61,624 bases of DNA, from positions 1 to 61,624 of the forward strand of contig CAYGMD010000003.1 of the NCBI GenBank assembly GCA_964350785.1, given 5' to 3'. The notes under the pieces are model-generated. The model was not told where the DNA came from. It did no database searches and worked only from the letters and a program-made list of their open reading frames with translations. The DNA is from an uncultured Acidobacterium sp. (GTDB taxonomy: Bacteria; Acidobacteriota; Vicinamibacteria; Vicinamibacterales; UBA2999). Within the stretch, counting starts at the first letter, position 1, and every line of letters begins with the position of its first letter. This document shows, piece by piece, positions 1,484-44,330 of this stretch. Both the position numbers and the translations under genes were made by a program.

Positions 1484-1569
1484 GACAACCTCGCCGACCA
1501 AGTCGGCGACGCGGCTGGCACGCGTCGCTGAGGACCAGTCCAGCGAGCGACCCGAACGTTACAGCTGGA

Positions 1570-24853: not shown

Positions 24854-25839
24854 CTCCGGCGCTCCACCTCGAGCAGATCGCGGCAGGCTACGGGCCACGC
24901 CGAGTGCTCCACGACTTCAACCTCGAAGTCGCCGCCGGTACCCTGACGGTACTGCTGGGACCGTCTGGATGCGGCAAGACCACCGTGCTGAACGTGGTGG
25001 CCGGGCTGTTGCCGGTGACGGGCGGCCGGGTCTTGCTGAACCAGAAGCCGCTCACCGAAGTCCCCGCCGAGCGGCGGGGCATCGGCGTCGTCTTTCAGAA
25101 GCCGTCGCTGTTTCCACACCTGACCGTCGCCGACAACGTCGCGTTCGGGCTCGCGATGCGTGGCGTCGCGCCGGCCAGGCGCCGCGCCGCGGCAGACGAA
25201 GCGCTGCGGCTGGTGCAGCTCGACGGCTTTGGCGATCGCACGCCAACGGCCCTGTCCGGCGGCCAGGAGCAGCGCGTGGCGCTGGCGCGGGCACTCGTGC
25301 TGGAACCGCGCGTGCTCCTGCTCGACGAGCCCCTGTCGGCCCTCGACGAAGGCTTGCGGGGAGAAATGCGGGCATTGCTGCGCAATCTGCAACGCCGGCT
25401 CGGCGTCACCACTCTCTTTGTTACCCACGACCAGCGCGAGGCAGTCGACATTGCCGACCAGGTGGCGGTGATGCTTGACGGCTCGATTGCGCAGGCCGGC
25501 CCACCGCGGCTGTTTTACACCGACCCTGCCACTGAACAGGTCGCGCGATTCTTCGGATGGGCGCTGCTCACCGGGTCGGGTGGTGGCACTGCGTTTCACC
25601 CTTCATCCGCCCGGCTCTGTTCCGGGCAGGACGACCACGGCGCCGACGCCGTAGCCGTCGAGGTGGTCGTCGAGCGAGTCCTCGACCTCGGCGCACAGAT
25701 TCGGGCCGTCGTGAGACTGCCCACCGGAGAGTCGATCGAGATCACCCAGGCGCCGGGCTCCGAGCTGGCACTCGAGTCCGCCTCAGGCACGGCAGCCGCA
25801 CGCCTCTTCGTCCCGAAGTCCGGCCTCCGCACCTTCTGA
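24850..25839 (+). CDS. ABC ATP-binding subunit
   Basis: GPSGCGKT, LSGGQEQR, LLLDEP. Confidence 0.92.
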   Translation: MTPALHLEQIAAGYGPRRVLHDFNLEVAAGTLTVLLGPSGCGKTTVLNVVAGLLPVTGGRVLLNQKPLTEVPAERRGIGVVFQKPSLFPHLTVADNVAFGLAMRGVAPARRRAAADEALRLVQLDGFGDRTPTALSGGQEQRVALARALVLEPRVLLLDEPLSALDEGLRGEMRALLRNLQRRLGVTTLFVTHDQREAVDIADQVAVMLDGSIAQAGPPRLFYTDPATEQVARFFGWALLTGSGGGTAFHPSSARLCSGQDDHGADAVAVEVVVERVLDLGAQIRAVVRLPTGESIEITQAPGSELALESASGTAAARLFVPKSGLRTF

Positions 25840-25847
25840 ACGGTCCC

Positions 25848-25873
25848 TGTAACGTTCGGCCCGTCCGCGATAC
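25848..25873 (+). promoter_or_regulatory. ECF-type promoter TGTAAC-N14-CGATAC
   Basis: Upstream of bufA copy 1; shares TGTAACGTTCGG with the copy 2 promoter. Confidence 0.6.
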
Positions 25874-25938
25874 TCAACTCCAGTTGGCCGGCGGTCAGGA
25901 TGAACCTGGCCGCGCCGGGCCATCAGGCTGGAGCCTCC

Positions 25939-26205
25939 ATGAATCCTCGTTTCGTTATCGCCTCGGCGTTCGCCGCGGCCATCGCCGTCCCCGCCCTGCT
26001 CTCGGCCCAGAAGCCCGCCGAGATGCCCACCTTCAAGGCGGAAAAGTGCTACGGCATCGCCAAGGCCGGCGCCAACGACTGCGCGTCGACCGGCAACAAC
26101 TCGTGCGGCGGCACCTCCAAGCGCGCCAGCGACAGCAAGGCCTGGATGTTCGTGGCCGAGGGCACCTGCGACCGCATCGTCGGCGGCAGCAAGACCGCGA
26201 AGTAA
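25939..26205 (+). CDS. bufA1: DUF2282 bufferin-type precursor, copy 1
   Basis: Signal peptide + EKCYGIAKAGANDCA...SC...C, four Cys, 88 aa. Confidence 0.85.
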   Translation: MNPRFVIASAFAAAIAVPALLSAQKPAEMPTFKAEKCYGIAKAGANDCASTGNNSCGGTSKRASDSKAWMFVAEGTCDRIVGGSKTAK

Positions 26206-26217
26206 GCACGGGACCAA

Positions 26218-26577
26218 GTGGCCATCACCATGTCGTCGACTCATCGCGCTCCGGTCCGGGCCGGCGTCGGCCCGAGATTGCCGCACATCGAAGAGGTGGT
26301 GGCCACTCGGCTGCCCTATGACCGGGAGACGCTCGACACGGTGACGCGACACCTGCGCGAGGTCCAGGACGGCCTGGGTCGGCCATACCTGCTGGAGAAC
26401 CCATCCAGCTACGTCGGCTTCGCGGGCTCGACCATGACGGAAACGGAATTCCTGAACGAGCTGGTCGACCGCACCGGCTGCCAAGTGGCGATGCCCGTGT
26501 GGGGCAGCGACGCCCGTCGTTCGCTCATGGTTTCTCCGTCACAGATCCAGGGTGAGGTCAGTCGAATGGGCGCGTGA
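26218..26577 (+). pseudogene. DUF692 (MNIO) maturase remnant
   Basis: Versus the intact copy at 39930 it has an 86-codon in-frame deletion (ATR/LPYDRET) and loses homology after DRTGC. Confidence 0.9.
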
Positions 26578-27486
26578 GACGCACGTGCACATGTACTGCT
26601 CTCGGAGCCCCTGCGAGAGGCAGACGTCGCGGTGGTCCGGCTCGCCAGCGACGACCCGCGTCATGCAGGAGGCGCACTCGCCGCGGCGACACTCGTACGG
26701 CGCCCACACGCCGGCGTTGAGGATGGCATCGAGGATAGTCTCCCCGGGGACGACCTGGACGGTGAGCGCCGAGCGCGCGAGGTGGACTTCGACAACCCGG
26801 TCACCGGGAAGCAGCGTCGGGCCGAAGCTTTCGAAGTGGATCTGGGCTTTCGGCCAACCGGCCTGTTCGCCCAGGGATGTCACCGCGCGGATCAACACCG
26901 GCGGGCCACACACATAGACGTGCGCCCCGCGCCGTGGCGTGGCCAGAAGGGCCTCGAGGTCGACCAGTTGGGGCGGCTCCACGTGACTGAAATAGAAGTG
27001 CGCCCGGTCGCCGGCGAGCGCCTCGATTCCCTCGCCGAACGCCATCCGGGCCGGCGTGCGCGCGGCGTAATGCAACTCGAAGCTGCGCCGATGGTGCACG
27101 AGCGTCTGGACCATGCTCAGGAGAGGCGTGATGCCGATCCCGCCCGCGATGAGGATGGTGTGGTCGCCGTCGAGCAGGGGGAAGCCGTTCTCCGGCGGAG
27201 CCACTCGGAGGATCGAGCCCGGCTCGATCCGCTCGTGCATGAAGCGGGACCCGCCCCGGCCCTCGGCCTCCAGGAGGACGGCGATCCGGTAGCGATTTCG
27301 ATCCCGCGGATCCCCGAGCAGGGAATAGTGCCTCTGCGCGGCCCGTCCGTTCGCGAGCTCGACCTCGACCTGGAGATGGGCGCCGGCCTCGAAAGGCGGC
27401 AGATCCGCACCTCCCGGATCCCGCAACTCGAACGAGCGGATCTGCTCCGCTTCGTCGCGGAGGTCCGTAACGCGGAGGGTCATCAT
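26539..27486 (-). CDS. PDR/VanB-family FMN/2Fe-2S oxidoreductase
   Basis: RHYSL, GGIGITP, CRRGECASC...C. Confidence 0.9.
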   Translation of the reverse strand: MMTLRVTDLRDEAEQIRSFELRDPGGADLPPFEAGAHLQVEVELANGRAAQRHYSLLGDPRDRNRYRIAVLLEAEGRGGSRFMHERIEPGSILRVAPPENGFPLLDGDHTILIAGGIGITPLLSMVQTLVHHRRSFELHYAARTPARMAFGEGIEALAGDRAHFYFSHVEPPQLVDLEALLATPRRGAHVYVCGPPVLIRAVTSLGEQAGWPKAQIHFESFGPTLLPGDRVVEVHLARSALTVQVVPGETILDAILNAGVWAPYECRRGECASCMTRVVAGEPDHRDVCLSQGLREQYMCTCVSRAHSTDLTLDL

Positions 27487-28376
27487 GCCTCGATCGGTGG
27501 GTTGAACGGAGATTCATCGACCAGGCGCCAATGGGTCGCGCCGGGCAATGGCGAGACGACCCACGCGCGGGGCCTCAAGGTCCAGGCGCGCCCGGTGCCC
27601 GCCATTTCCACGCTGACCTCGCCGCTCAGGTGCAGCTGCCGTCGCGCCTCGAAATCGACGAGAGCCAATCCCGCGCGCGGTTCGACCACCATGTTCCCGA
27701 GGCTGCAGAACATGGAATTCCCCGGGTAGTCGGGCACGACGACGGTATCGCCGTCCAATCGCATGTACCCGCGTCGCCCGCCGCGATGCGAACAGTCGAG
27801 CCTCCCGTCCGGCCCGATGCTCGCGACGAATGCCGTATCGGTGCGAGTCAGCCACGATTGCAGCTGAGCCGGGGCGCCCAGTCCCCTCGACGTCGTCGCC
27901 GACGGCACGAGTGTGGCCGCATCGACGCGTTCGCGCCGCTGGATGTACTTGGGGCAATTCGGAAACGCTTGCTCAACAGCGACCCGCAGGTCGCGGTCCG
28001 TCGATCGCTCGACGACCCCATTGACCCGTAATCGACGCCTCGTGGCAAGGTCGATGACCAGCATGCCGACCGCGCCCGTCGCGCGCACATCGTCGTGGAA
28101 CGAGCCGGGCGGTGTGAGACTGCCCGTCGTACGAATCGTCACGGCGGTCCCGTCCTGGTCGCAAGACGCAAACCCAGGCCCACCCACCGCCAGCGACGCC
28201 CAGGGATTGCCCGACGGGTCGCGCCAACCGATCGCGACAGAGGATTGTTGACCGACGAAGGACCGGGCAGGCGCAGGGATGACACTCGAGAACACACGGC
28301 CATTGAGGACCGCCTGACTGCGTTCGCCAGCCAGTTCCTGAACGGCGATCTCACCTCGGTGATACAACTCGGCCAC
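27483..28376 (-). CDS. Pyridoxamine 5'-phosphate oxidase-like (double FMN split barrel) protein
   Basis: YHRGEIAVQ, RRRLRVNG, NCPKYIQRR, DCSHRGG, PDYPGN. Confidence 0.85.
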   Translation of the reverse strand: MAELYHRGEIAVQELAGERSQAVLNGRVFSSVIPAPARSFVGQQSSVAIGWRDPSGNPWASLAVGGPGFASCDQDGTAVTIRTTGSLTPPGSFHDDVRATGAVGMLVIDLATRRRLRVNGVVERSTDRDLRVAVEQAFPNCPKYIQRRERVDAATLVPSATTSRGLGAPAQLQSWLTRTDTAFVASIGPDGRLDCSHRGGRRGYMRLDGDTVVVPDYPGNSMFCSLGNMVVEPRAGLALVDFEARRQLHLSGEVSVEMAGTGRAWTLRPRAWVVSPLPGATHWRLVDESPFNPPIEA

Positions 28377-28390
28377 GATGACTCTCCTAG

Positions 28391-28424
28391 AAAAAAATGG
28401 GGCGGGACCCAGTCGGCCCCGCCC
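28391..28424 (-). terminator. Intrinsic terminator after dsrE-like gene
   Basis: GGGCGGGGCC/GGUCCCGCCC stem followed by a U7 run. Confidence 0.7.
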
Positions 28425-28445
28425 GGTCACAACCTCGCGGGGTGG

Positions 28446-28823
28446 TTAGAAGTTCAGGACGCGGTAGCCGGCGTCCAGGTACTTGGACAGATCGATGATT
28501 CCGGAGGTGCCCGGAATCGCCTTTTCGTGAATCAGGTTTGCACCGGCATTCCTGGCGTCCTGCGTCGCACCGAACACGTCGGCGCAACCACCGCACACGC
28601 CGACCACGCTGTCCTTGACCGCGTTGTAGAGCGCGTGCGCCGGGTGTTCGGGCTTCACCAGCTCGCTGGCCCAACGCACGCCGGTGCCCTGGAAGATCAG
28701 CGCCACGTCCTGCTTCTTCTCGAGCAGTTCGTAGGCCACGAACATGCCGTTGAACAGCCGGCCGAGCGCTTCTTCACTGCCGGACTTCGGATCGGAATAG
28801 ATGACAATTGCGGTCTTCGACAT
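28446..28823 (-). CDS. DsrE-family protein
   Basis: LIFQGTGV and VCGGCADVFG. Confidence 0.75.
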   Translation of the reverse strand: MSKTAIVIYSDPKSGSEEALGRLFNGMFVAYELLEKKQDVALIFQGTGVRWASELVKPEHPAHALYNAVKDSVVGVCGGCADVFGATQDARNAGANLIHEKAIPGTSGIIDLSKYLDAGYRVLNF

Positions 28824-28900
28824 CAGTCACTCCTGAAAATTGTGGTCTGCAAATGGCCGATTAAGTCGTGTACGAGCGCGGCGTGGCCCTGCGCCGCGCG

Positions 28901-29374
28901 TCAGAGGTTGAGATCCGACAACGAGGGATGCCCCTCGGGCCGCGGGCCGGCCGGCCACCGGAACAGCCGGTCGGCCTCGAGAATCGGCCGCTCGTTGATG
29001 CTGGCCAGGCGGCGCCGCATCAGCCCGGCGGTGTCGAACTCCCAGTTCTCGTTGCCGTACGACCGGAACCAGTTCCCGCTGTCGTCGCGCCACTCGTAGG
29101 CGAAGCGAACGGCGATCCGATCGGCGCCGAACGTCCACAGCTCCTTGACAAGCCGGTAGTCCAGTTCGCGCGCCCACTTCCGCCGCAGAAACGCGACGAT
29201 GGCGGGGCGACCGGCAAGGAACTCGACCCGGTTGCGCCAGATCGAGTCCGGCGTGTAGGCGAGCGACACGCGCTCCGGATCGCGGCTGTTCCAGCCGTCC
29301 TCCGCCATCCGCACCTTCTGCGTGGCGGTCTCAGGGGAAAACGGCGGTGCAGGTGGACGAATCGGTAAAGACAT
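28901..29374 (-). CDS. DUF1348 / NTF2-like protein
   Basis: [36 protein letters not shown]. Confidence 0.9.
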
Positions 29375-29404
29375 GGGCACAGTCCTCTCGTTGACCGGGC
29401 GTTC

Positions 29405-30208
29405 CTACTTGAGCGACGACAGGACCTTCACGGCGCTCGCCGTGCTCCAGATGTCGCTGGCAATGAGCCGGAAGTTGACGTAGGCGGCCTCGTAGCCGTC
29501 GAAGCCCGGAAGTTTCGCGGCGGCCGTCGCGTCGGTGACGACGACGACCTCGAAGCCCTGCTCGAGCAGCTCGCGCATGTGCGACTCGGTGCAGAGATTG
29601 GCCGACATGCCGGCCAGCACGACCTGGCCGATTCCGGCCTTTCGAAGCTGCAGCACCAGATCGTTGGTCTCGGGTCCGAACACCTTGTGCGGGCTGGAGA
29701 CGACGGTCGTGCCGTCGTTCAGGTACGGCTTGTAGCGATCCAACCAGTCGGCGCCTGATCCCTCGAACGCTTCCTGCGTGAGCGCGCCCTTGCGGTCGAA
29801 CATGCCGATGTTGTGCATCAGCACCTCGAGCGCGCCCGCGAACTTCCAGCGATGGTCGTGCGCGAAGTAATAGTGCGGGCTCACGAACACCGGCACATCC
29901 GCGGTCTTCGCGGCCTTGAGCAGCCGCTCGATGTTCTCGACCGTGCCGTTCTCCTTCACGCTCTCGCCGACGACGCCCCAGGCGACGCCCTTCGGGCTGA
30001 GGAAATCGTTCTGCGGATCGGTGACGAGCAAGCCGACGCGGCCCTTGATGGGGGTCATGCCGGGACGCGGCACCGGCGCGTCGGCTCGCGGACCACTGAA
30101 GTGCGGCAGGGTGGGTGTCGCGCGCTGAGCGACGAGGTGGGGCGCCACGGCCAGGGCCGAAGCGCCGACAATCAGGGCGATAACTGACAAGCGGATGATA
30201 CGGGTCAC
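29405..30208 (-). CDS. Isochorismatase-family cysteine hydrolase with signal peptide
   Basis: TDPQNDF, SPHK, GMSANLC catalytic triad. Confidence 0.88.
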   Translation of the reverse strand: MTRIIRLSVIALIVGASALAVAPHLVAQRATPTLPHFSGPRADAPVPRPGMTPIKGRVGLLVTDPQNDFLSPKGVAWGVVGESVKENGTVENIERLLKAAKTADVPVFVSPHYYFAHDHRWKFAGALEVLMHNIGMFDRKGALTQEAFEGSGADWLDRYKPYLNDGTTVVSSPHKVFGPETNDLVLQLRKAGIGQVVLAGMSANLCTESHMRELLEQGFEVVVVTDATAAAKLPGFDGYEAAYVNFRLIASDIWSTASAVKVLSSLK

Positions 30209-30284
30209 GGTGGTCTCCTTCGACCGATGAGCAAACACGGTTCCTTAGGACGAATCGTCCTGACTCGTCCCCGCCGACCGATAT

Positions 30285-30301
30285 ATCAAGTTGCCTGCCA
30301 A
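30285..30301 (-). promoter_or_regulatory. sigma54-type promoter TTGGCAGGCAACTTGAT
   Basis: GG-N10-GA variant of -24/-12; faces the hydrolase operon, next to a bEBP gene. Confidence 0.55.
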
Positions 30302-30340
30302 CTTGTGACCTGACGTGTAAGTTACTGTTTCAATTGATGT

Positions 30341-30356
30341 TGTGACAGATTTCAGA
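30341..30356. promoter_or_regulatory. CRP-type box TGTGA-cagatt-TCAGA
   Basis: One mismatch; divergent AT-rich intergenic region. Confidence 0.5.
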
Positions 30357-30462
30357 CATTATCCGGTAACGACCAAATATCGTCGCCTACCATTTTTCGT
30401 TGCACATAATAGTTGTTTTTCGTAGTCTACCAGCGGTGAACACGCTTCAGTTACCTGGTGTC

Positions 30463-32016
<1,554 letters not shown>

Positions 32017-32403
32017 TTGACGGCGGACAGTTCGGCACACGCAGCCGCGCAGCTTCTCGAGAGGACCGCCGCGCGGTCCGGCCACCAGCGGTGCCCACCG
32101 CTACCTCAAGGCGACGATTCGGTCCGCACATCCTGACCACCCGCGGTTGCGGCGCTCGTCGGCATCCGCGTCTTTGCGCGGGAGCTGAACAGAAGCACGT
32201 TGCCTTCGAAGGGGGTCGATGCGGCTTTCGCAGGCGTGAGCTGGTTCGGCGGTCTTCTCGGTGGCGTGGGAACAGGTCTGTGGATGCTCCGGTGCCGCCG
32301 CATTCCGATCGTGCGAGCGGCCGCCCAAGCGACCTGCCGTGGGCCGTCGCTTTTCCCGGCGCCGGACTGCGGCAGCCCTGACGACTGCCAGCCCTTCGTG
32401 CCG

Positions 32404-33198
32404 TCAGTGATGCGCCGGCCGTTGCGCTGATCGCTTCCATAGGGCGATCCCTCCGAGCAGGCCGGCAGCGTTGTCGACCACGCGCACGCGGCGGCCCAGG
32501 TGGAAATCGATGCGCGCGGCGTTGCCCCCACCCAGATAGAGCCGGTCGAAGTTGAAAACGGTCTCGAGAATGCCAATGACGCGACGCACGCGCCGGCGCC
32601 ACTTGCGAGTGCCCAGCCGCTTACGCGCCGCATCGCCGAGGTACTGATCGTAGGTCTTGCGGCCGCGGACCGGGTGCTGTGACAGTTCCAGATGCGGCAA
32701 CAGCGCGCCGTCCTGAAACTGCGCGCTGCCCACGCCGGTTCCCAGCGTGATGACCAGCTCGAAACCTTGACCCGCGATCACCGCAAGCCCCTGGACCTCG
32801 GCGTCGTTGACCACCCGAACCGGCCGCTTGAGAATCTCCTCCAGCGCGCGTGCGAGATCGAATCCGCGCCAGGTCCGACTGGCGAAGTTCGGTGCGGTGC
32901 GTACGACACCATCTCGAACCACGCCTGGAAAGCCTGCCGAGATCCGATCATACTCGGCCAGGGGCGCGACCAAGTCGCGGATTGCGCGTACCACGGTCGA
33001 TGGCGGCCGGCCGGCGGGTGTTGGCGTACGCACGCGGTCGCCTATGGGCTTGCCGCGAGCATCGAGGACCACGGCCTTCAGTCCCGTTCCGCCGATGTCG
33101 ATCGTCAGCGTCAGAGGGCCGGCGCGTCTACGACGCTGTTGCCTCGCACGGGCGGCTGCAGGGGGCTTGGTTGAAATGACAGGCTCCTTCGGCGTCAT
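32404..33198 (-). CDS. ROK-family kinase (polyphosphate glucokinase-like)
   Basis: DIGGTGLK, VNDAEVQG, LGTGVGS, LGGGNA. Confidence 0.85.
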   Translation of the reverse strand: MTPKEPVISTKPPAAARARQQRRRRAGPLTLTIDIGGTGLKAVVLDARGKPIGDRVRTPTPAGRPPSTVVRAIRDLVAPLAEYDRISAGFPGVVRDGVVRTAPNFASRTWRGFDLARALEEILKRPVRVVNDAEVQGLAVIAGQGFELVITLGTGVGSAQFQDGALLPHLELSQHPVRGRKTYDQYLGDAARKRLGTRKWRRRVRRVIGILETVFNFDRLYLGGGNAARIDFHLGRRVRVVDNAAGLLGGIALWKRSAQRPAHH

Positions 33199-33244
33199 AT
33201 GGCTTAGGTTAGTCGCCGTCGTGAGTTGTCTGTTACCGCCGACC

Positions 33245-33260
33245 GGTGATCCACATCACA
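33245..33260. promoter_or_regulatory. CRP-type box GGTGA-tccaca-TCACA
   Basis: Upstream of the ROK gene, which has TAACCT 7 nt before its ATG. Confidence 0.55.
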
Positions 33261-33344
33261 CATCCCGCACATCGCTCGTCTCGTTCCACCAAACCGGGCA
33301 CACACGTTGGACATCACGCGGGCACGTTCAACTCTGGCGGAATC

Positions 33345-33520
33345 TGATGCACCCGCATATTGGTCGGTCGATGTTAATGGTTAAACCCGGCCTGCGGATG
33401 GTGAGGGTCAAGCAGGCATTTGGAGTCTTGATTCTCGGCACAGCGCTCTACTACGGCTATGTGGCGTATGAGTTGTTCGCCAATCGCTGGGTGGACGCCT
33501 CCTCGGCGGCGACGCGCGAA
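33345..33520 (+). pseudogene. DsbD/CcdA transmembrane-domain remnant
   Basis: KPGLRMVRVKQAFGVLILGTALYYGY resembles the DsbD PxPGxWMxxxKxxxG segment. Confidence 0.55.
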
Positions 33521-33631
33521 CCGGGCGAGTTGTCCAGCTCAATCGCCGTACCATCACATCTCTATGATGCAAAGGGGCTACAGAACAGAGCACCCCTGGC
33601 CATTTGGTGGCGGGACCCCTTGTGCGAAGGC

Positions 33632-33647
33632 TGTGAGCGGAGTCACA
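33632..33647. promoter_or_regulatory. Perfect CRP-type box TGTGA-gcggag-TCACA (class II position)
   Basis: Centre 33639.5; TATGAT at 33670-33675; GTG 33680 / ATG 33683. Confidence 0.75.
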
Positions 33648-33682
33648 CCTTGGGCGCGATCAGTGCGCGTATGATGCGGGTG

Positions 33683-34831
33683 ATGAAAGGTGCGGCGAGT
33701 TTCTGGTCAATGCTGGCGCTGCTGTGCGCCCCGCTGTTCTCGCAGGTGCCGGCGCCGCGGGCGCCCGTGGACGTGGCACGGCTCGGACCGCAGGTCGGCG
33801 AACACGTTCCTGGATTCAGCCTGACGGATCAGTCGGGCAAGACGTGGACTCTGTCCTCCGTCATGGGCCCGAAGGGCGCCATGATCGTCTTCTACCGATC
33901 GGTGGATTGGTGACCGTATTGCAAAACGCAGCTCGTGGAGCTGCAAGGACGGGTGGACGAACTCACGGCGCAAGGCCTCGGCCTAACCGCCATCAGCTAT
34001 GACTCGCCGGAGCTGCTGGCGGATTTCAGCCGCCGGCACCGGATCACGTTTCCGCTGCTCTCGGACACCGGCTCGGCGACGATCACGACCTACGGCATTC
34101 TCAACACCGTCGCCGACGAAGCGCTCGAGACCCGACCCGGCAACGCCACCCTGCGGGAGGATGTGAAGAAGTACGTGGCGACCAACGGATCGCGCAGCGT
34201 CGCCGAGCTGACGAAGGGAACGCCGTTCCCCGGTACGTTTGTCGTCGATCGCGAGGGTCGCGTCACGGCGCGATTCTTCGAGGAGTACTATCGCGAGCGG
34301 AACACGGCATCGAGCATCCTGCTCAGGCTCGGAAACGGTGCGCCGCCGGTCGCCGCCACGCGGATCGCGGCTGCACATCTCGACATCACGGCGTATGCGA
34401 GCGACTCGACGGTCTCGCCCGGCACACGCTTCGCGCTTGCCGTGAGCGTCGTGCCCCGGCCGCGCATCCACGTCTACGCCCCGGGCGCCGATGCCAACGG
34501 GTACCGTGTCGTGTCCTTGAGCGTCGCGCCGCAGCCGTTCGTGCGGACGCTGCCGATTCGTTATCCCCCTTCGGAGATCTACGATTTCAAGCCGCTCGAC
34601 GAGCGCGTGCCGGTGTACCGGAAGGCGTTCACCTTGCTACGGGAAGTGGTCGTCGAGGTCACCTCCGAAGCGGAGCGGGCCCTGCGCGATCGGAAGACCC
34701 TGACGATGACCGGCGTCCTCGAGTATCAGGCCTGCGACGACAAGGTGTGTTTCACTCCGGCAACGGTGCCGCTGACGTGGACGGTCGCGCTCACACCAAA
34801 CATTACCGAGCGCCCGAATCGTCCGCAGTGA
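33683..34831 (+). CDS. Exported redoxin + DsbD-N-like selenoprotein (UxxC), Sec at UGA 33911-33913
   Basis: FYRSVDW-TGA-PYCKTQL aligns with FSRSASW-C-PYCKTQL of 16018..17100. Confidence 0.9.
33928..33944 (+). other. Putative SECIS hairpin
   Basis: GCAGCUC-GUG-GAGCUGC; loop about 20 nt after the UGA. Confidence 0.75.
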
Positions 34832-35031
34832 CACGGGCGCGGGCCCCGGCCCTCGACTCACCATCGCGATGAGCCTGCTGCTTTTCGTCGTGCTGATCCG
34901 GATGCGCCAGACGGTGGCAGGCGAATCTCGACGCGGTCAGCGCACCCAGCCTCCTCAATCTGCCCAGCCCGCGGATCTTCAATGCTTTGAATCAATCCTG
35001 CGGCCGTATTGGATCGTGGCTCCGAGCTCGC

Positions 35032-35058
35032 TGTAACGAAAGTCCTTCACTAACGGAC
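35032..35058 (+). promoter_or_regulatory. ECF-type promoter TGTAAC-N15-ACGGAC
   Basis: Upstream of the TonB-dependent receptor. Confidence 0.55.
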
Positions 35059-35084
35059 TGTGCGACTGACGAGGAGGATCCGAC

Positions 35085-38000
35085 ATGGTGCATGACATAG
35101 ACAAAACGCCAGTGCGACAGCCTGGCTCAAGACGGAGTGGAGTGGCGGCGCTGGCCTGCGTCTTCGCACTGCTGCTCGCGACGCCCGCACTGGCGCAGGA
35201 ACAGCGCGGGAGCATCGTAGGAACGGTCACCGACACCTCGGGCGGCGTGCTTCCCGGCGTGACGGTCGAGGCGCGCAGCGCCGGCGGCACCGTCGTTACC
35301 GCGACCACGGATGCGTCCGGGGGCTACCGGTTCCCCGCGCTGGCGCCCGGCACGTACGAGGTCACCGCCACCCTCGCTGGCTTCAGAGCGCAGAGAGTCG
35401 ACAAGGTCCAGGTCGCGGTGAGCCAGATCCGGAAACTGGATGTCGCCCTCGCCGTGGGCGGCGTCGCGGAGGCCGTACAGGTGACCGCTGAATCGCCGAT
35501 CATCGAGGTCACTCAGAGCGAGAAGGCGACGCATATCCGGGACGAATTCATCACAAACCTCCCGAAAGGGCGGGACTTCTCGACCCTGCTCATTCAGGCG
35601 CCCGGTGCCAACGCCGAGAGCCGTTTCGCTGGCCGCATTTCGATTGACGGCTCGAGCGCCGGCGAGAACCGGTTCTTCGTCGACGGCGTCGACACGACGC
35701 AGATGGTCAACGGCACCCAGGGCAAGAAGGTGGTGACCGACTTCCTGGACGAAGTCGAGGTGCGCTCGAGCGGCTACACCGCCGAGTTCGGCGGCTCCAC
35801 GGGCGCCGTGGTCAACGTGGTCGGCAAGAGTGGCTCGAACGCATTTCACGGCGACGGGGGCTTCTACTTCTCGGGGGATTCGCTGACGTCGAGCCGGCGC
35901 CCCACGCTGCGGCTCAACCTCAACAACTCCGAGCTCGCCGAGTTCGTGACGTTTCCTGAAGATGACGAGACCCAGGTCGAGCCCGGCGTCACAATTGGCG
36001 GGCCGATCGTCAAGAATCGCGTCTGGTTCTTCGGCGGCTACCAGCCGGAACTGATTGACAGAGAGCGGACCGTGACGCTCACGGCAAACGGTGAGACAGT
36101 CTCGCGCGGGCAGGACGAGACCACGCACAACGTCACGGCCAACGTCCGCAGCCAGATCAAGAACAACCTCACGGGCCGGCTCGCGTTCAACATGAGCTCG
36201 TCCCGTAGAGAGGGACTGCTGCCGGACCTGAGCGGCACGGACGCGCCGGGCACGCTCTACGACATCGACCGCACAAGTCCGAACCGGACGTTCTCCGGGC
36301 ATCTCGACTATGTGGCAACCCCGAAGCTGTTCCTGGGCGTTCGTGGCGGGTATTTTTTCTCCGACATCACAGACAAAGGCGTGCCGCAATCGCCGAACGT
36401 CACTTTCCAGACCTCGAACATTGGCCAGGCGGGCGTGCCGGCGCAGTTCCAGCGCTCGACCGGATTCTCGACGCTTTCCACCAACAACGAGACGCGGAAG
36501 GACGAGCTGACGCGCCTGAACTTCCAGGGCGATGCGACCTACTACGCCGACTTCGGCGGCAAGCACACCTTCAAGGGCGGCGTGCAGATCGATCGCATCG
36601 GCAACGACGTCGATTCCGGGGAGACCGGTCATCGCACGCTGGTGTTCTGGAACCGATCGATCGGCGGCCAGCGCGGGACATTCGGCTACTACCGGATTCG
36701 CAGCAACGGTTTGCGGCCAGAGCTGGGATTCCTGCGCCAGGGCGACATCAATCAGAACAACGTGGGGCTGTTCATCCAGGACGCCTGGGCCGTCACTGAC
36801 CGGCTCACGCTCAACATCGGTCTGCGCAGCGAGAACGAGCACATCCCCTCGTTCACGACCGAGGGCGGCATTCCGTCGACTGCGATCAAGTTCGACTTCG
36901 GCGACAAGCTGGCGCCGCGCCTGGGGGCGGCCTACGACGTCCTCGGGGACGGGCGCTGGAAGGCCTACGGCTCGTGGGGCCTCTACTACGACATCACCAA
37001 GCTCGAGCTGCCGCGCGGATCGTTCGGCGGCGAGCACTGGCTGGAGTATTGGTTCGCGCTCGACACGCCGGATTTCAACTCGCTCAACCCCGCCGGCTGT
37101 CCGCCGGCCTGCCCCGGCCGACTGCTCAGGGGACCCACCAACTTCCGCAGCCCGTCGAATTCGCCCGGGGACGAGACGATCGATCCGGGCATCGACGCGA
37201 TGAAGCTCCAGGAGGCCGTCGTCGGGCTCGATCACCAGCTCACGCGGGACATCGCGATCGGCGCGCGCTACGTCCACAAGCAGATCGACCGCGCGGTCGA
37301 GGACATCGGGTTCCTCGACGCCGCCGGGAACGAGATCTTCAAGATCGGCAACCCCGGCTTCGGCCAGTCGCACGAATTCCTCCCTGACGGCGGCACCAGC
37401 GTGATCGCTCAGCCGAAAGCGGTGCGCGACTATGACGGCGTGGAGGTCTCCCTCAACAAGAGCCTGTCGAACCACTGGGCGCTGCGGACGAGCTATCTCT
37501 GGAGCCGCCTCCATGGCAACTTCTCCGGGCTGTCGCAATCGGACGAGAACGGCCGCCTCAGCCCGAATGTCGGCCGGAACTTCGACGCCCCGATCATGTC
37601 GTTCAACGCGGAGGGGGAGCCCGTCTTCGGGGCCCTGGCGACCGACCGGCCGCACCAGTTCAAGGCACATTTCATCTACGCCCTGCCGTTCGGCACGACC
37701 GCCGGCGTCAGCCAGTTCGCGTCAAGCGGCGTCCCGGTGACCCGCGAGGCCGCGTTCATTCTGGGGAGCAACTTCCCGGTCATGTACCTCGGGCGGAAGA
37801 GCGACGGGCGCACGGAGAAGTTCACGCAGACCGATCTCGTGGTGATGCACGAGTTCGGTTTGGGGGCCGGTCAGGGCCTGCAGGTGAGCTTCAACATCCT
37901 GAACCTGTTCAATCAGGACGCCGTCACCGAGAAGTTCCGTACCCAACTGGCCTCGGGTACGTCGATCAACGTGACGGAGGCGGAGTTCTTCAACGGCGTC

Positions 38001-38114
38001 GATACGCGAGCGCTCATCAGCCAGCAGCGGCTCCCGCAGGACCCGCGCTTCCTCCAGCCGTCGGGCTTCCAGGCGCCGCGCTCGATGCGGTTCGGCGTGC
38101 GCTGGCGGTTCTGA
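35085..38114 (+). CDS. Oar-like TonB-dependent receptor with carboxypeptidase-regulatory-like N-domain
   Basis: GTVTDTSGGVLPGVTV, FFVDGVDTT, AEFGGSTGAVVNVV, C-terminal RFGVRWRF. Confidence 0.92.
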   Translation: MVHDIDKTPVRQPGSRRSGVAALACVFALLLATPALAQEQRGSIVGTVTDTSGGVLPGVTVEARSAGGTVVTATTDASGGYRFPALAPGTYEVTATLAGFRAQRVDKVQVAVSQIRKLDVALAVGGVAEAVQVTAESPIIEVTQSEKATHIRDEFITNLPKGRDFSTLLIQAPGANAESRFAGRISIDGSSAGENRFFVDGVDTTQMVNGTQGKKVVTDFLDEVEVRSSGYTAEFGGSTGAVVNVVGKSGSNAFHGDGGFYFSGDSLTSSRRPTLRLNLNNSELAEFVTFPEDDETQVEPGVTIGGPIVKNRVWFFGGYQPELIDRERTVTLTANGETVSRGQDETTHNVTANVRSQIKNNLTGRLAFNMSSSRREGLLPDLSGTDAPGTLYDIDRTSPNRTFSGHLDYVATPKLFLGVRGGYFFSDITDKGVPQSPNVTFQTSNIGQAGVPAQFQRSTGFSTLSTNNETRKDELTRLNFQGDATYYADFGGKHTFKGGVQIDRIGNDVDSGETGHRTLVFWNRSIGGQRGTFGYYRIRSNGLRPELGFLRQGDINQNNVGLFIQDAWAVTDRLTLNIGLRSENEHIPSFTTEGGIPSTAIKFDFGDKLAPRLGAAYDVLGDGRWKAYGSWGLYYDITKLELPRGSFGGEHWLEYWFALDTPDFNSLNPAGCPPACPGRLLRGPTNFRSPSNSPGDETIDPGIDAMKLQEAVVGLDHQLTRDIAIGARYVHKQIDRAVEDIGFLDAAGNEIFKIGNPGFGQSHEFLPDGGTSVIAQPKAVRDYDGVEVSLNKSLSNHWALRTSYLWSRLHGNFSGLSQSDENGRLSPNVGRNFDAPIMSFNAEGEPVFGALATDRPHQFKAHFIYALPFGTTAGVSQFASSGVPVTREAAFILGSNFPVMYLGRKSDGRTEKFTQTDLVVMHEFGLGAGQGLQVSFNILNLFNQDAVTEKFRTQLASGTSINVTEAEFFNGVDTRALISQQRLPQDPRFLQPSGFQAPRSMRFGVRWRF

Positions 38115-38239
38115 ATATCTGAAGGCGGGCCGCGTCGGGACGCGGCTCGCCTCCCTCGGCGCGGGCCGCGATCGAGCACGAGCAGGCCCACCTGCACATC
38201 AGCGCCGCCACCCGCTGGGAAATGGCGAACAAGGCGACC

Positions 38240-38594
38240 CGTGAAAGTGCGGGAGTGCTCAACAGAAGAACAAAGCAAGAACGATTCTGGTTGCCCAGAA
38301 TCGGCGAGAGGTCGCTGTTGAGGCCGACCACGGGGCGCTCGATCGAATCGCTGCTGCTGAAGAACTTGAAGGGCACGCCGTCGAAGCTGGCGCCGCCCAG
38401 GCCCGCAAACGACAGGTAGTCGTAGCCACGCAGCTCGGCGTTCCCCCCGAAATAGGTGAAGTCGGGATTGTCGCCCCAGCTCGAGAAGCCACGCGCACGG
38501 AGCACGAGGACTCCCCAGCGCCGAGGCGAAGATACTTGCGCGCGTCGACGTCGAGCGTTTGCCGCGAGAGCGTGTTGCCGATCTTCGGCGCCAA
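38240..38594 (-). pseudogene. Omp85/BamA-like barrel C-terminal fragment, frameshifted
   Basis: LSRQTLDVDARKYLRL, frameshift near 38520, then VLVLRARGFSSWGDNPDFTYFGGNAELRGYDY (RGY loop motif). Confidence 0.65.
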
Positions 38595-38717
38595 CTCGTT
38601 AGAACTGGAATTCGATCAGCACCCCGCAAAGGGCGGCCAGCGCGGAAACGGCGAGCAGGAGCCGGACATACGACTCGATGACGCGACACTGACGTTAGAT
38701 ATGTTACCTGCCCGTCG

Positions 38718-38743
38718 TGTAACGGCACGCCGGAAGGGGAGAC
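38718..38743 (+). promoter_or_regulatory. ECF-type promoter TGTAAC-N14-GGAGAC
   Basis: Upstream of membrane protein 38768. Confidence 0.6.
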
Positions 38744-38767
38744 CACATCAGCATAGGGAGCCCCTCA

Positions 38768-39300
38768 TGAATGCGCGCAACTACGTGCTCGACCGGCCGG
38801 CCGGGTGGTCGCCTGACTCGGCGCTGACCTGGTCCAGCGGATTCCTCGCCACACTCGCCATCAGCACGACGAGCTACCTGCTTCCCGCAATCGGGCTGCC
38901 GCAGGTCGATCTCCCTGTCTGGGTGGCACGGTTGCTTGTCGCCGATCCCGTTCACGTCGGCGCGGTGGGACTCGCGGTGCACCTGGTCGCCGGCTTCACG
39001 TTCGCGTGGCTCTACGTCACGCAGGTCGAGCCACGCCTCACCTTCGGGCCGGGAACGAGCGGCCTGATCTTCGGCGCCGGGCTCTGGTTCTTCGTCCAGA
39101 CTGTTGCTGTGCCGATGCTCGGCGCCATCGGTAGTGTCCTCGGCGCGGTTGGAGGCGAGCCCGGCCTGCTGTCGGCGCGCTTTGGTGTGGCCGCCGCCGG
39201 GGCTAGCCTGGTTGCGCATCTTGCCTATGGCGGTGTGCTTGGCTACGTCTATGGCTGCCGGGGTGGTGGGCGCTGCCGGCGGGTGCGGGAAGCTGGCTAA
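38768..39300 (+). CDS. Four-TM membrane protein of unknown function
   Basis: GLAVHLVAG and [10 protein letters not shown] His-containing helices; GGGAG RBS. Confidence 0.7.
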
Positions 39301-39329
39301 GGTGCCGAGTCCGCCGGCTTCGACACCCA

Positions 39330-39432
39330 CCATCGACACACTCAGTCAACGCCCGGAGTAGTTCGGCGACACTCCACGCTTGCGCAGTGCAGCCCCGCGG
39401 CGTGTGCGGTGGGTCGCCGTCGAACAGTTCGC
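39330..39432 (-). pseudogene. C-terminal remnant of amylo-alpha-1,6-glucosidase
   Basis: [27 protein letters not shown] matches the GDE_C terminal motif. Confidence 0.75.
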
Positions 39433-39560
39433 AGTTGCGGAGTCTCGCGGGGACAGTGGATTTCCGCCCGAAAGTGGCCCCGAGATGCAGGCCACGCAGT
39501 TGGTGGTCCCGGCCGCCAGCCTGCGTTTCTTCTGGCTCGACCGGGCACATTCGCACCGAG

Positions 39561-39586
39561 TGTAACGTTCGGGCCTCCCTCAAGAC
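39561..39586 (+). promoter_or_regulatory. ECF-type promoter TGTAAC-N14-CAAGAC
   Basis: Upstream of bufA copy 2. Confidence 0.65.
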
Positions 39587-39652
39587 TCATTCTGTTGTGG
39601 CCGGTCGACCGGGATGGACCCGGGACCGCGCCTGGCCACCTGTGGAGCACCC

Positions 39653-39919
39653 ATGAACACTCGTATCGTTATCGCCTCGGCGTTCGCGGCGGCCATCGCC
39701 GTCCCCACCCTCCTCGCCGCACAGAAGCCCGCCGAAATGCCGAGCTTCAAGGCCGAAAAATGCTACGGCATTGCGAAGGCCGGCGCCAACGACTGCGCAT
39801 CGACCGGCAACAACTCGTGCGGTGGCACGTCGAAGCGGGCTGGCGACGGAAAGGCATGGATGTTCGTGCCTGAGGGAATCTGCGACCGCATCGTCGGCGG
39901 CAGCAAGACCGCGAAGTAG
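39653..39919 (+). CDS. bufA1: DUF2282 bufferin-type precursor, copy 2
   Basis: 79/88 aa identical to copy 1 by manual alignment. Confidence 0.88.
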   Translation: MNTRIVIASAFAAAIAVPTLLAAQKPAEMPSFKAEKCYGIAKAGANDCASTGNNSCGGTSKRAGDGKAWMFVPEGICDRIVGGSKTAK

Positions 39920-39929
39920 GAGGGGACAG

Positions 39930-40814
39930 GTGGCCATCGCCATGTCATCGATGCGAATGCCAGCCCGAGCGGGCGTCGGCCTGAGACTGCCGCACATCGA
40001 AGAGGTGATGGCCACCCGGCCGTCTGCCGGGTGGTTCGAGATCCATCCGGAGAACTTCGTGGCCAATCCCCATGCAACCGAGCTCTTGCAGGATCTGGCG
40101 CAGCAGTATCCCGTCTCCGTTCACACCGTCGGCCTGTCAGTTGGCAGCGTGGGCGGAATCGATCGCGGACACCTCGCCCGCGTGCGCGCGCTCATTGATC
40201 TCATCGATCCGATCCTGGTGTCCGGTCACCTCGCGTGGTCGACGCACAAGGGCGAGTACCTCAATGATCTTCTGCCGCTGCCGTATGACCGTGAGACCTT
40301 GGACACCGTCGCGCGGCACCTGCACGAGGTCCAGGACGGACTCGGCCGACCGTACTTGCTCGAAAACCCATCGAGTTACGTCGGCTTTGCAGGTTCGACG
40401 ATGACAGAGATCCAATTCCTGAACGAACTGGTGGATCGCACCGGCTGTCGGTTGCTGTGCGACGTCAGCAACGTGTATTTGAGCGGTCGCAACATGGGGT
40501 ACGACGCGCGCGGCTACATCGATGGACTGCCTGCCGACGCCATCCGTGAGTTACATCTCGGAGGATTCACACCGGAAGACGACGAGGCGACGCCTGGCGG
40601 CGAAGTGCTCATCGACACCCACGCAACTCCCGTCGCGGAACCCGCATGGGATCTCTATGCCTATGCGATCCGTCGGTTCGGCCCAAGACCGACGCTGATC
40701 GAGTGGGACAACGAGATCCCGGCGCTGGGGGTGCTGCTCGACCAGGCGGAGAGAGCCAACGCCGTCGCGCACGAAGCAGTTACAGGCGAGGCACACCGTG
40801 TTGCCGCTCGCTGA
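39930..40814 (+). CDS. bufB: DUF692 MNIO bufferin maturase
   Basis: EIHPENF, SGHLAWS, LLENPS, LCDVSN, ELHLGG, IDTH, LIEWD. Confidence 0.92.
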   Translation: MAIAMSSMRMPARAGVGLRLPHIEEVMATRPSAGWFEIHPENFVANPHATELLQDLAQQYPVSVHTVGLSVGSVGGIDRGHLARVRALIDLIDPILVSGHLAWSTHKGEYLNDLLPLPYDRETLDTVARHLHEVQDGLGRPYLLENPSSYVGFAGSTMTEIQFLNELVDRTGCRLLCDVSNVYLSGRNMGYDARGYIDGLPADAIRELHLGGFTPEDDEATPGGEVLIDTHATPVAEPAWDLYAYAIRRFGPRPTLIEWDNEIPALGVLLDQAERANAVAHEAVTGEAHRVAAR

Positions 40815-41637
40815 CATTCAACAACGCATCCGCGACGCGGTCGTCGCTGGCGACCTCAGCGCCGCCGCACCCCTTTTGATCGGCGGCGTGGATGCCACCA
40901 GGCGCCTCGCGATCCATCGCCGCCATTATGAAACAAGCCTCGTGGCCGCGTTGTTGGGCCGATTTCCCGCCACCGGCTGGCTCATGGGAACCGCGACCAT
41001 CGAATCCGCCGCTCGCGTATTTGTGCGCGCACAGCCGCCCTCGGCGCCGTGTATCGCCGAGTACGGCCAGGACTTCCCGAAGTTCCTTGCGGAATGGCCT
41101 GGGTGTGAACGCGTCCCCTATCTGCAGGCGTTCGCGGATCTTGATTGGCACCTGGGTCGACTCGCGGTGGCGGGAGACCTGCCTGCGGTCACACGGACCA
41201 GCATCGCCGCCGTTCCGCCCGCTCAATTGGCGGACACGACGCTGACGATTCAGGCCGGCATCCACTACCTCGCGGCGTCCCGCCCCATCGATGACTTGAT
41301 CATGCTCTATCTCGCTGACGACACGCCGGATCGCATCGAGTTGCCGGAGGCCGACGTGTGGGTCGAGGTCCGTGGCGCACGGGGAGCGTTTCGCTTCGCG
41401 CGGCTCACACCGGCCACCTTCGCCTTCCGGGTCGCCCTTGCGAGTGGGTTGTCGATCGGCGATTCGGCAGAGCGTGCGTGGGCAGTGGATACTTCCTTTG
41501 ATCCGGGCGCGGCGCTCGCGCTGCTGGTGGATGCGGGCCTCGTCGTCGCCATCGACGGCCGCGAGATGAGCGCGGCATGGCCTGATGAGCTACGCCCTCG
41601 ACCTCTACGCCTCGCCACAACGCCACGTATCCGGTGA
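40798..41637 (+). CDS. bufC: DUF2063 (HvfC/BufC-like) partner protein
   Basis: RLAIHRRHY, YGQDFPKFL, ADLDW; follows DUF692. Confidence 0.85.
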   Translation: MLPLADIQQRIRDAVVAGDLSAAAPLLIGGVDATRRLAIHRRHYETSLVAALLGRFPATGWLMGTATIESAARVFVRAQPPSAPCIAEYGQDFPKFLAEWPGCERVPYLQAFADLDWHLGRLAVAGDLPAVTRTSIAAVPPAQLADTTLTIQAGIHYLAASRPIDDLIMLYLADDTPDRIELPEADVWVEVRGARGAFRFARLTPATFAFRVALASGLSIGDSAERAWAVDTSFDPGAALALLVDAGLVVAIDGREMSAAWPDELRPRPLRLATTPRIR

Positions 41638-41756: not shown

Positions 41757-42503
41757 ATGAGCCTTCAGGCGAACCACGTCACGTACGCGTTCGGCGACGT
41801 GATCGCGCTTGATGACGTGTCGCTGTCGGTTCCGCGCGGACAGTGCCTCGCGCTTGTCGGGGAAAGCGGCGCCGGGAAGACCACCCTTCTGCGCTGCTTC
41901 AACCGGATGGTTGTTCCATCGAGCGGTCAAGTGTGGGTCGATGACATCGACGTCGCGCGGCAACCCGTGGCGGAACTCCGTCGGCGGATCGGATATGTCC
42001 CGCAGCACGGAGGACTACTGCCGCATTGGACCGTTCTTCGTAATGTCGCACTGGTCCCCGATCTGTTGCGTCAACCTGACGCCGCTGCGGCGGCACCGCG
42101 AGCACTCGAGCAGGTGGGCCTGTCGCCTCGCGACTTCGGGAACCGCTATCCGCACGAGTTGTCAGGTGGCCAGCGTCAGCGTGTCGCGCTGGGCCGCGCT
42201 ATTGCCGCACGACAGGACGTGCTGCTCATGGACGAGCCCTTTGGAGCGCTGGACGCTATCAGCCGCTCCGAGCTTCAGGCGCTCTTTGCATCTCTTCGTA
42301 TGCAAACGGGCGTAACGACGCTGATCGTGACGCATGACTTGTTGGAAGCCGACTTCCTGGCCGACGAGATCGCGGTCATGCGCGGCGGCCGGATCGAACA
42401 GCGATCCACACTGGACACCCTTCTTACCACGCCAGCGACGCCGTACGTCGAGTCCCTCCTCGCTCGAGCGCTATCAGGCGGGCGGCGCAGGAGGGACTCA
42501 TGA
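41757..42503 (+). CDS. Osmoprotectant ABC ATP-binding subunit
   Basis: GESGAGKT, YPHELSGGQRQR, MDEPFGALD; TATACT 6 nt before the ATG. Confidence 0.9.
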   Translation: MSLQANHVTYAFGDVIALDDVSLSVPRGQCLALVGESGAGKTTLLRCFNRMVVPSSGQVWVDDIDVARQPVAELRRRIGYVPQHGGLLPHWTVLRNVALVPDLLRQPDAAAAAPRALEQVGLSPRDFGNRYPHELSGGQRQRVALGRAIAARQDVLLMDEPFGALDAISRSELQALFASLRMQTGVTTLIVTHDLLEADFLADEIAVMRGGRIEQRSTLDTLLTTPATPYVESLLARALSGGRRRRDS

Positions 42504-44137: not shown

Positions 44138-44241
44138 AGACAGGAAGATTGCCCTCGGCGGCCACTGGATCGATCCCTCAACAGCCGTTCGGCGACAACA
44201 GGTAACCCTCCCAGAACTGCCGGACCGACACTAGATGATGA

Positions 44242-44330
44242 TGGCGGAGAGGGTGGGATTCGAACCCACGTGCCCTTTCGGACAACACGCTTTCGAGGCG
44301 CGCCCGTTACGACCACTTCGGTACCTCTCC
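44242..44330 (-). tRNA. tRNA-Ser(CGA)
   Basis: GGAGAGG/CCTCTCC acceptor stem, CT-CGA-AA loop, long variable arm, GGTTCGAATCC, CCA end. Confidence 0.95.

Follow-up and report, generated by a model that had tools for sequence, protein, structure and literature searches.

Two paralogous bufferin gene sets in a Vicinamibacterales genome, the resident one probably in early deletional decay

Background

Bufferins are copper-binding peptides. The founding cluster of the Buf1 bufferins is buf1ABCD of Caulobacter vibrioides (CCNA_03363-03366), in which a DUF2282 precursor with a Sec signal and four cysteines is followed by an MNIO enzyme, a DUF2063 partner and BufD, under the control of an extracytoplasmic function (ECF) sigma factor (PMC11626156). 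In that system BufB1 and BufC1 are both needed, and together suffice, to form two thiooxazoles on BufA1. Modification goes ahead without the signal peptide, and neither modification nor protection against copper depends on DoxX (BufD) (PMC11626156). Here we describe two Buf1-type loci on a contig of 61,624 nucleotides from an uncultured acidobacterium (CAYGMD010000003.1, assembly GCA_964350785.1; hereafter the window, meaning this whole stretch), and suggest that one of them, in which an intact precursor gene stands beside a broken maturase gene, is at an early stage of loss.

The window loci follow the plan of buf1ABCD, with a four-cysteine DUF2282 precursor carrying a predicted Sec signal, then MNIO and DUF2063 genes. 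They are preceded by a promoter-like motif whose -35 half, TGTAACG, resembles the GTAACC of the Caulobacter sigmaF site (GTAACC-N16-CGAA; PMC3511200). Unlike the Caulobacter cluster, neither window copy has bufD or an adjacent sigF-nrsF, and the phylum differs. A second Caulobacter cluster, buf2ABC (CCNA_02999-03001), is alike in having three genes without DoxX, in being the second cluster of its genome and in depending on the same sigma factor. It differs in that its precursor has six cysteines and is not a DUF2282 protein, and in that both Caulobacter clusters are intact.

A sizeable share of Buf1 precursor genes is unlinked to any MNIO gene, clusters with tandem precursors occur, and single genomes hold up to five DUF2282 genes; for such precursors, modification by enzymes whose genes lie elsewhere and no modification at all have both been suggested (PMC12452194). 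Stand-alone DUF2282 genes, for example in Legionella pneumophila subsp. fraseri with its five Buf1 genes (PMC12452194), resemble the decayed locus in that a precursor lacks an adjacent MNIO gene and the MNIO/DUF2063 pair lies elsewhere. They differ in that the origin of the orphan is readable in the window, from a bufB stub, two deletion junctions and intact orthologues at the same site.

An intact and a decayed gene set

We propose, with a probability of roughly 0.8, that the window holds two paralogous Buf1-type sets, of which the resident one, locus 1, is in early deletional decay through redundancy. Both sets would belong to a sub-lineage without DoxX and would have comprised bufA (a Sec-exported precursor with four cysteines), bufB (an MNIO iron oxidase) and bufC (its DUF2063 partner). 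The ancestral position would be that of locus 1, directly behind a YnjBCD-like ATP-binding cassette (ABC) transporter. Locus 2 would stem from a copied segment that took in the 3' end of the ATPase gene, and would now lie behind a gene for a four-transmembrane (4-TM) protein. With two redundant sets present, locus 1 would be undergoing loss in this population through two illegitimate deletions, one of 258 bp within bufB and one of about 3.95 kb with its ends at about codon 170 of bufB and at codon 14 of an arginase gene. What is left over would be an intact bufA with its promoter and 5' untranslated region (UTR), and a dead stub of bufB. The orphan bufA is likely still transcribed from its predicted ECF-type promoter, and its product would be exported.

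The window is the complete contig C3 of a metagenome-assembled genome (MAG), G000, of 5.08 Mb in 375 contigs (95% complete, 3% contamination). The host is an uncultured soil or groundwater acidobacterium, and the named relatives of its window proteins are Vicinamibacterales (Acidobacteriota) MAGs. Two window regions were compared with BLASTN, open reading frames (ORFs) were assigned with Pfam profiles, and whole-genome profile searches covered all 375 contigs. The comparison loci were L030, L031 and L032/L033, which we term type 1, and the JGI contig L034, which with copy 2 forms type 2. Counts of bufA and of the 4-TM family refer to 301 Vicinamibacterales genomes.

The set at locus 2 (39561-41637), bufA-bufB(MNIO/DUF692)-bufC(DUF2063), is intact. 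Its BufB has PDB relatives 3bww, 8hci and MbnB and is 93% identical to P0089, and its BufC aligns end to end with five homologues, variation being confined to the C-terminal tail. Locus 1 (25848-26577) keeps its promoter, an intact BufA1 of 88 amino acids with a GGAG ribosome-binding site ahead of its ATG, and a 119-codon bufB relic, and has no bufC. BLASTN aligned 25848-26311 with 39561-40020 (83% over 468 nucleotides) and 26310-26480 with 40277-40447 (81%, ungapped). Copy 1 is without the copy-2 bases 40021-40278, amounting to 258 nucleotides or 86 codons, in frame, and homology between the copies stops at 26480-26483. Of the 263 MNIO profile positions the relic retains 106-166, together with about 30 codons of the N-terminus; its last 31 codons are unrelated read-through, and in the GVGLR motif, elsewhere invariant, it alone has L changed to P. 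An adjacent full-length MNIO (PF05114) gene is absent at copy 1 and present at copy 2. Pfam searches found no DUF2063 gene in locus 1, the sole copy genome-wide being 40798-41637, and the two DUF2282 genes, two DUF692 matches and one DUF2063 gene of the genome are all those of the two loci.

Both precursors match PF10048 (DUF2282/BufA1; curated cut-off 22.4 bits). They differ at nine of 88 residues, four in the signal peptide and five in the 64-residue core, none of them a cysteine. The four core cysteines (EKCYG, NDCAS, NSCGG and G(T/I)CDR) are present in both copies and in all orthologues, and copy 1 differs from its L033 orthologue at three residues. By eye, the N-terminus MNPRFVIASAFAAAIAVPALLSAQ|KP has n-, h- and c-regions as in BufA1, and is predicted to be a Sec signal peptide. 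The original prediction had described locus 2 as intact, and copy 1 as keeping its promoter and a precursor with nine amino acid differences, with 86 codons and the tail missing from its DUF692 gene and DUF2063 gone. Full-length Pfam matches at locus 2, the conserved promoter motif, the retained cysteines and the BLASTN and Pfam results at the relic agree with that description throughout.

The decayed locus at the ancestral site

Among close homologues of the copy-2 MNIO protein, the copy-1 BufB fragments are closest to P0091, P0096 and P0097 and not to copy 2. The contigs of these proteins, L030, L031 and L032/L033, carry intact bufA (88 amino acids), bufB (291-298) and bufC (260-266) genes directly behind the same four-gene YnjBCD-like ABC transporter that precedes copy 1. 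The right flank is also common to copy 1 and these orthologues, with genes on the minus strand for a PDR-type reductase and PNPOx-like, DsrE, DUF1348 and isochorismatase proteins, then a sigma-54 activator. Pairwise BLASTN found the window collinear with all three apart from two gaps. Thirty sites separate copy 2 from all three orthologues, which agree among themselves there; copy 1 is orthologue-like at 27 of them and copy-2-like at three. Its identity over the 486 nucleotides in common is 93.8% with L033 and 86.0% with copy 2. Taken together, the shared synteny, the diagnostic sites and the higher identity identify locus 1 as the resident, syntenic orthologue of the intact bufABC of relatives and not as a spare duplicate.

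Copy 2 groups with L034 (MNIO 93% identical; bootstrap 90). Between the 4-TM gene and the copy-2 promoter lies a relic of about 32 codons from the 3' end of an ABC ATPase gene. It resembles the C-terminus of the partial ATPase ORF before the type-2 bufA of L034 (ESRGDSGF...) and is paralogous to the ATPase at 24850-25839, the gene upstream of locus 1. A tblastn search of the region upstream of copy 2 with the locus-1 ATPase gave no match, and the relic was recognised via L034 alone. Downstream of bufC, L034 has an AhpC-like gene of 281 amino acids with 78-80% identity to the AhpC-like gene of the type-1 loci. Since the ATPase relic stands before copy 2 as in L034, and L034 has the AhpC-like gene, the unit ancestral to the second type appears to have consisted of the ATPase 3' end, promoter, bufABC and AhpC-like gene.

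In the order as sampled, bufA is present in 16 of 301 genomes, and two copies occur in G000 only. In G111 the region is rearranged, and a search there for an 'empty site' corresponding to locus 2 gave none.

Several observations touch the surroundings of the two loci and the fate of such clusters elsewhere. In relatives an SDR (adh_short) gene stands between the DsrE and DUF1348 genes (L030 15892-16665, L032 6840-7613); it is absent in the window (28823-28901). Past bufC copy 2 the next gene is an ABC ATPase at 41757, part of a two-gene OpuA-type ABC transporter (41757-44137) that separates bufC from a 68-nucleotide stretch at 44160-44227. This stretch is 98.5% identical to L034 2638-2705, which there lies between bufC/NTP_transf_9 and the AhpC-like gene, and it adjoins a tRNA-Ser(CGA) gene at 44242-44330(-); the arrangement suggests that an insertion or replacement took place downstream of locus 2. 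Another decayed bufferin locus is found in a same-genus genome (L016, G016:C2, 7320-8416(-)), where bufA and the first ~110 bufB codons are lost, and the first ~110 bufC codons are fused in frame to the last ~70 DoxX codons. The remaining bufB of G016 begins at most four codons from the right edge of the 258-bp deletion in the window (LLPLPY). This closeness, considered as a sign of a common deletion hotspot, may be coincidence or may reflect a slippery CTGCTGCCGCTGCC stretch. The decay in G016 and the presence of bufA in 16 of 301 genomes suggest frequent gain and loss of these clusters.

Two deletion junctions

The two gaps in collinearity are deletions with no more than 2 nucleotides of microhomology at either junction. 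The bases missing through deletion 1 are present in L030, L031, L032, L033 and copy 2. Deletion 2 corresponds to L030 9531-13478 (3,948 nucleotides), and took the 3' ~125 codons of bufB, bufC, a gene for a 144-amino-acid membrane protein, a 282-amino-acid AhpC/redoxin-like gene and most of the arginase gene, whose first 14 codons remain as a relic.

The source is a 375-contig MAG with 3% contamination, and the original prediction had named misassembly of the broken copy among the findings that would overturn it. Other assemblies, made with different assemblers, give the same structure. ENA contig ERZ27247837 k141_1325915 (21,646 bp) spans both copies with the same two junctions, and a Logan contig of SRR22388248 covers copy 1, again with both. 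Each is one base off the window, outside the locus, and each has an identical BufA copy 1, then the same MNIO stub of 115 amino acids, then the convergent reductase gene. The agreement of independent assemblies on the junctions, and the linkage of both copies on a 21.6-kb contig, therefore indicate that the broken copy is not a misassembly. Furthermore, at 83% identity the copies are too divergent for collapse, and on both sides of each junction the flanking sequence keeps the order seen in relatives. It is thus extremely improbable that copy 1 is a chimeric or collapsed part of a contig.

Recent loss and the fate of the orphan precursor

The relic still looks like a gene under constraint. Its 57-codon middle fragment, compared with copy 2, gives a non-synonymous divergence (dN) of 0.045, a synonymous divergence (dS) of 1.36 and a dN/dS of 0.033; for intact bufB pairs over the same third of the gene, dN is 0.016-0.030 and dN/dS is put at 0.017-0.03 or, more loosely, at about 0.02-0.05. 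Substitutions found in copy 1 alone, over the 74 stub codons that can be aligned, are five synonymous and three non-synonymous, and four intact bufB lineages together have 17 and four. With a relic dN/dS as in intact pairs, nearly all of the divergence would predate the loss. The deletions are therefore recent, with the relic still bearing a strong signature of purifying selection.

This bears directly on the view that the orphan precursor is selected, being matured in trans by the BufB and BufC of locus 2 for a higher dose or a second bufferin variant. Retention of the intact gene had been taken in the original prediction to suggest such trans-maturation. The promoter, ribosome-binding site, signal peptide and four cysteines are indeed intact, the core differs at five of 64 positions, and both deletions spared bufA. 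Many DUF2282 genes lie away from MNIO genes, only 21 of 4072 are without MNIO elsewhere in the genome, and modification in trans has been proposed for them (PMC12452194). Against this, the relic indicates a very recent loss, so that an intact 267-nucleotide bufA is the null expectation and is uninformative on retention. The bufA branch of copy 1 carries just one synonymous and one non-synonymous change. In addition, bufA and its promoter make up about 7% of the ancestral locus, and it is unsurprising that two deletions missed both. There is no indication that selection keeps the orphan bufA, and we hold its selective retention for maturation in trans to be a possibility, though a doubtful one. 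The narrower question of whether the surviving enzymes could act on it is a separate matter. Because the enzymes of the two types are 86-93% identical and the cores differ at five of 64 positions, none of them a cysteine, conversion of the orphan by BufB2/BufC2 is plausible, at about even odds.

Some observations also weigh against decay of a resident locus through redundancy. The phylogenetic tree has low support except for the clade of copy 2 with L034 (bootstrap 90), and locus 2 may have arisen by internal duplication or by transfer from a relative. An intermediate with two intact copies was not seen among the 301 genomes of the order. The non-synonymous excess of the relic is not significant (three of eight versus four of 21), and would indicate at most slight relaxation.

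Gene conversion between the bufA copies was also considered, given a dS of 0.43 for bufA against 1.36 for the bufB fragment and two C-terminal residues, D79 and T86, common to both copies. As a special event we reject it, since bufA dS is low in every locus pair, including pairs from different organisms, and only three of 30 sites are copy-2-like. Across copy 1, copy 2, L030, L033 and L034, dS is 0.18-0.50 for bufA and 0.3-1.7 for the adjacent bufB, two- to four-fold lower in almost every pair. The exception is the close pair of copy 2 and L034 (bufA 0.47 versus bufB 0.30-0.37). These values hint that synonymous sites or mRNA structure are constrained, or that precursor genes are often homogenised.

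Absence of DoxX and the four-transmembrane protein

As the original prediction stated, DoxX follows neither copy, and the six DoxX genes of G000 are all on contigs other than the window's. It is likewise missing after bufC in L030, L033 and L034, the L031 contig ending soon after bufC. Clusters of bufABCD with DoxX occur in more distant Vicinamibacterales loci (G024, G111, G187/L025, G060 and G199). Because no type-1 or type-2 member has DoxX, its absence is a property of the clade, older than the duplication; and because DoxX is dispensable in Caulobacter, this absence calls for no replacement.

The 4-TM protein encoded directly upstream of copy 2 had been put forward as a candidate to replace DoxX (BufD) in the bufferin system, as its membrane component. 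The promoter-like motif of both bufA genes also precedes the 4-TM gene, which supports the accompanying claim of co-regulation. The family is found in 11 of the 301 genomes, of which five also have bufA (against 16 of 301 overall), and in four of these five both genes lie within 23 kb on one contig. A survey of the family's neighbourhoods, proposed at the same time, found genome-level co-occurrence with bufA above random, and the gene does not count as part of the bufferin unit. The protein has no similarity to DoxX (no PF07681 match at E<=0.01). It has weak matches, below threshold, to DUF1440 (18.2 bits) and DUF6789 (17.9 bits, cut-off 27.1), and many of its homologues (50-66% identity) carry precomputed PF20587 or PF07274 matches. 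The ABC ATPase relic sits between the 4-TM gene and the copy-2 promoter, and the DoxX-less loci L030, L033 and L034 are without such a gene nearby. Moreover, the family co-occurs with DoxX-containing bufABCD in G187/L025, G060, G199 and G111, and the six of 11 genomes that have the family and lack bufA keep the promoter motif. Given also that DoxX is not needed in the Caulobacter model (PMC11626156), a role for the 4-TM protein as its replacement is very unlikely.

Instead, the 4-TM gene seems to belong to the same ECF stress regulon in its own right and to have been put beside copy 2 by rearrangement. In G000 and in 10 of the 12 contexts of homologues, a motif of the form (T/C)GTAACG-N16-17-GAC stands 25-35 nucleotides ahead of the start codon; genomes that lack bufA are among them. 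Adjacency to buf genes occurs in G000 and G187/L025 only, and in the latter the gene lies behind an ECF sigma gene divergent from a DoxX-containing bufABCD. Other contexts include genes for TonB-dependent receptors, ECF sigma factors, AhpC-like, MerR/MerA-like and glycosidase proteins. We speculate that the ECF-sigma regulon driving Vicinamibacterales bufferin genes includes the 4-TM protein as a fixed member, which may be a membrane-bound negative regulator of the sigma factor analogous to NrsF. The position behind the ECF sigma gene in G187/L025, the GTAACG-N17-GAC motif in 11 of 13 contexts and the TonB receptors and ECF sigma genes often found nearby would fit this idea, and NrsF was not found in G000; we nonetheless consider it improbable. 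The 144/166-amino-acid membrane protein downstream of type-1 bufC was also considered as a relative of the 4-TM protein and proved unrelated.

An AhpC/redoxin-like gene of about 280 codons, with weak T4-deiodinase-like or DsbD_N-like matches, follows all three kinds of bufferin cluster in the order (L030 11652-12500, L033 5842-6690, L034 3169-4014 and L015 11255-12058). The type-1 copy of the window was removed by deletion 2, and the window's other members, of the G024-like kind, lie away from the buf genes at 33953-34831 and about 16530-16970(-). This gene may be a conserved accessory of Vicinamibacterales bufferin loci.

A shared promoter motif and leader hairpin

A promoter-like motif precedes bufA in all eight loci compared. 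That of copy 1 is identical or nearly so in the orthologues L030, L031 and L033, and in copy 2 and L034, and a motif of the same type stands ahead of the ECF sigma gene of L025. The pattern TGTAACG-N17-AC occurs five times in the window against 0.14 expected, a figure to be read with the knowledge that the pattern was derived from these very sites. Seven sites of the form TGTAACG-N16-18-(G/T)AC precede genes in the window, at 1538-1563(-), 2683, 15672, 25848, 35032, 38718 and 39561. Genes behind them include a thioredoxin-like ORF at 2750, both bufA copies, a TonB-dependent receptor at 35085 and the 4-TM gene. The site at 15672 precedes a small ORF at 15776 of the zf-HC2 anti-sigma type, which immediately follows an ECF sigma gene (about 15.1-15.77 kb). 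Together these sites look like an ECF regulon spread over the contig.

Between promoter and ribosome-binding site, the 5' UTR of bufA can form an extended hairpin, TGGCCGG...CCGGGATGAACCCGG...CCGGGCCA, found at the same position in L030, L031, L033, L034 and L015. One stem pair changes from G-C to A-U on both sides in copy 1 and L033, and covariation is weak.

Table 1. Coordinates of the two bufferin loci and associated features in the window
Feature	Position	Strand	Detail
Locus 1 ECF-type promoter-like motif	25848-25878	+	TGTAACGTTCGG-N11-GATACTCA
Conserved 5' UTR stem-loop between promoter and bufA ribosome-binding site	25885-25930 (locus 1), 39597-39645 (locus 2)	+	RNAalifold, 7 loci
bufA copy 1, intact 88-amino-acid DUF2282/BufA1 precursor, now orphan	25939-26205	+	Pfam 69.4 bits
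bufB (MNIO/DUF692) relic, 119 codons	26218-26577	+	Gene callers start at 26230, 115 amino acids
Deletion 1 junction, 258 bp in frame	26311/26312		~2 nucleotides of microhomology
Deletion 2 junction, ~3.95 kb	26483/26484		Left inside bufB = L030 9530; right = L030 13479
Relic, first 14 codons of arginase-family gene	26487-26528	-	Reads MSERRASLPHTGIA; L030 arginase begins MSERPASLPHTGIA
ECF-type promoter-like motif, 4-TM gene	38718-38745	+	TGTAACG-N17-GACC
4-TM membrane protein, DUF6789/DUF1440 (YagU-like) family	38767-39300	+	Four predicted helices by inspection
Relic, ABC ATPase gene 3' end (~32 codons), between 4-TM gene and copy-2 promoter	39429-39540	+	
Locus 2 ECF-type promoter-like motif	39561-39591	+	TGTAACGTTCGG-N11-AAGACTCA
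bufA copy 2, 88-amino-acid DUF2282/BufA1 precursor	39653-39919	+	Pfam 69.8 bits
bufB copy 2, intact MNIO (MbnB_TglH_ChrH, formerly DUF692)	39930-40814	+	314 bits, profile positions 2-262/263
bufC copy 2, intact DUF2063/HvfC_N (PF09836) partner	40798-41637	+	Pfam 59.7 bits

Implications

The system is of a known type and its decay is ordinary, neither surprising nor mechanistically new. Two cautions follow for the reading of such loci: an intact gene is no evidence of selection when the wreck beside it is young, and a missing DoxX needs no substitute. Orphan precursor genes are common in databases, and the question of their modification in trans has already been stated (PMC12452194). With near-identical cores and a single surviving BufB/BufC, the pair described here is a clean test case for that question, cultured Legionella being the more convenient one. 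For the bufferin family, the case shows how a stand-alone precursor gene may originate stepwise, through redundancy and then deletion of the maturase genes.

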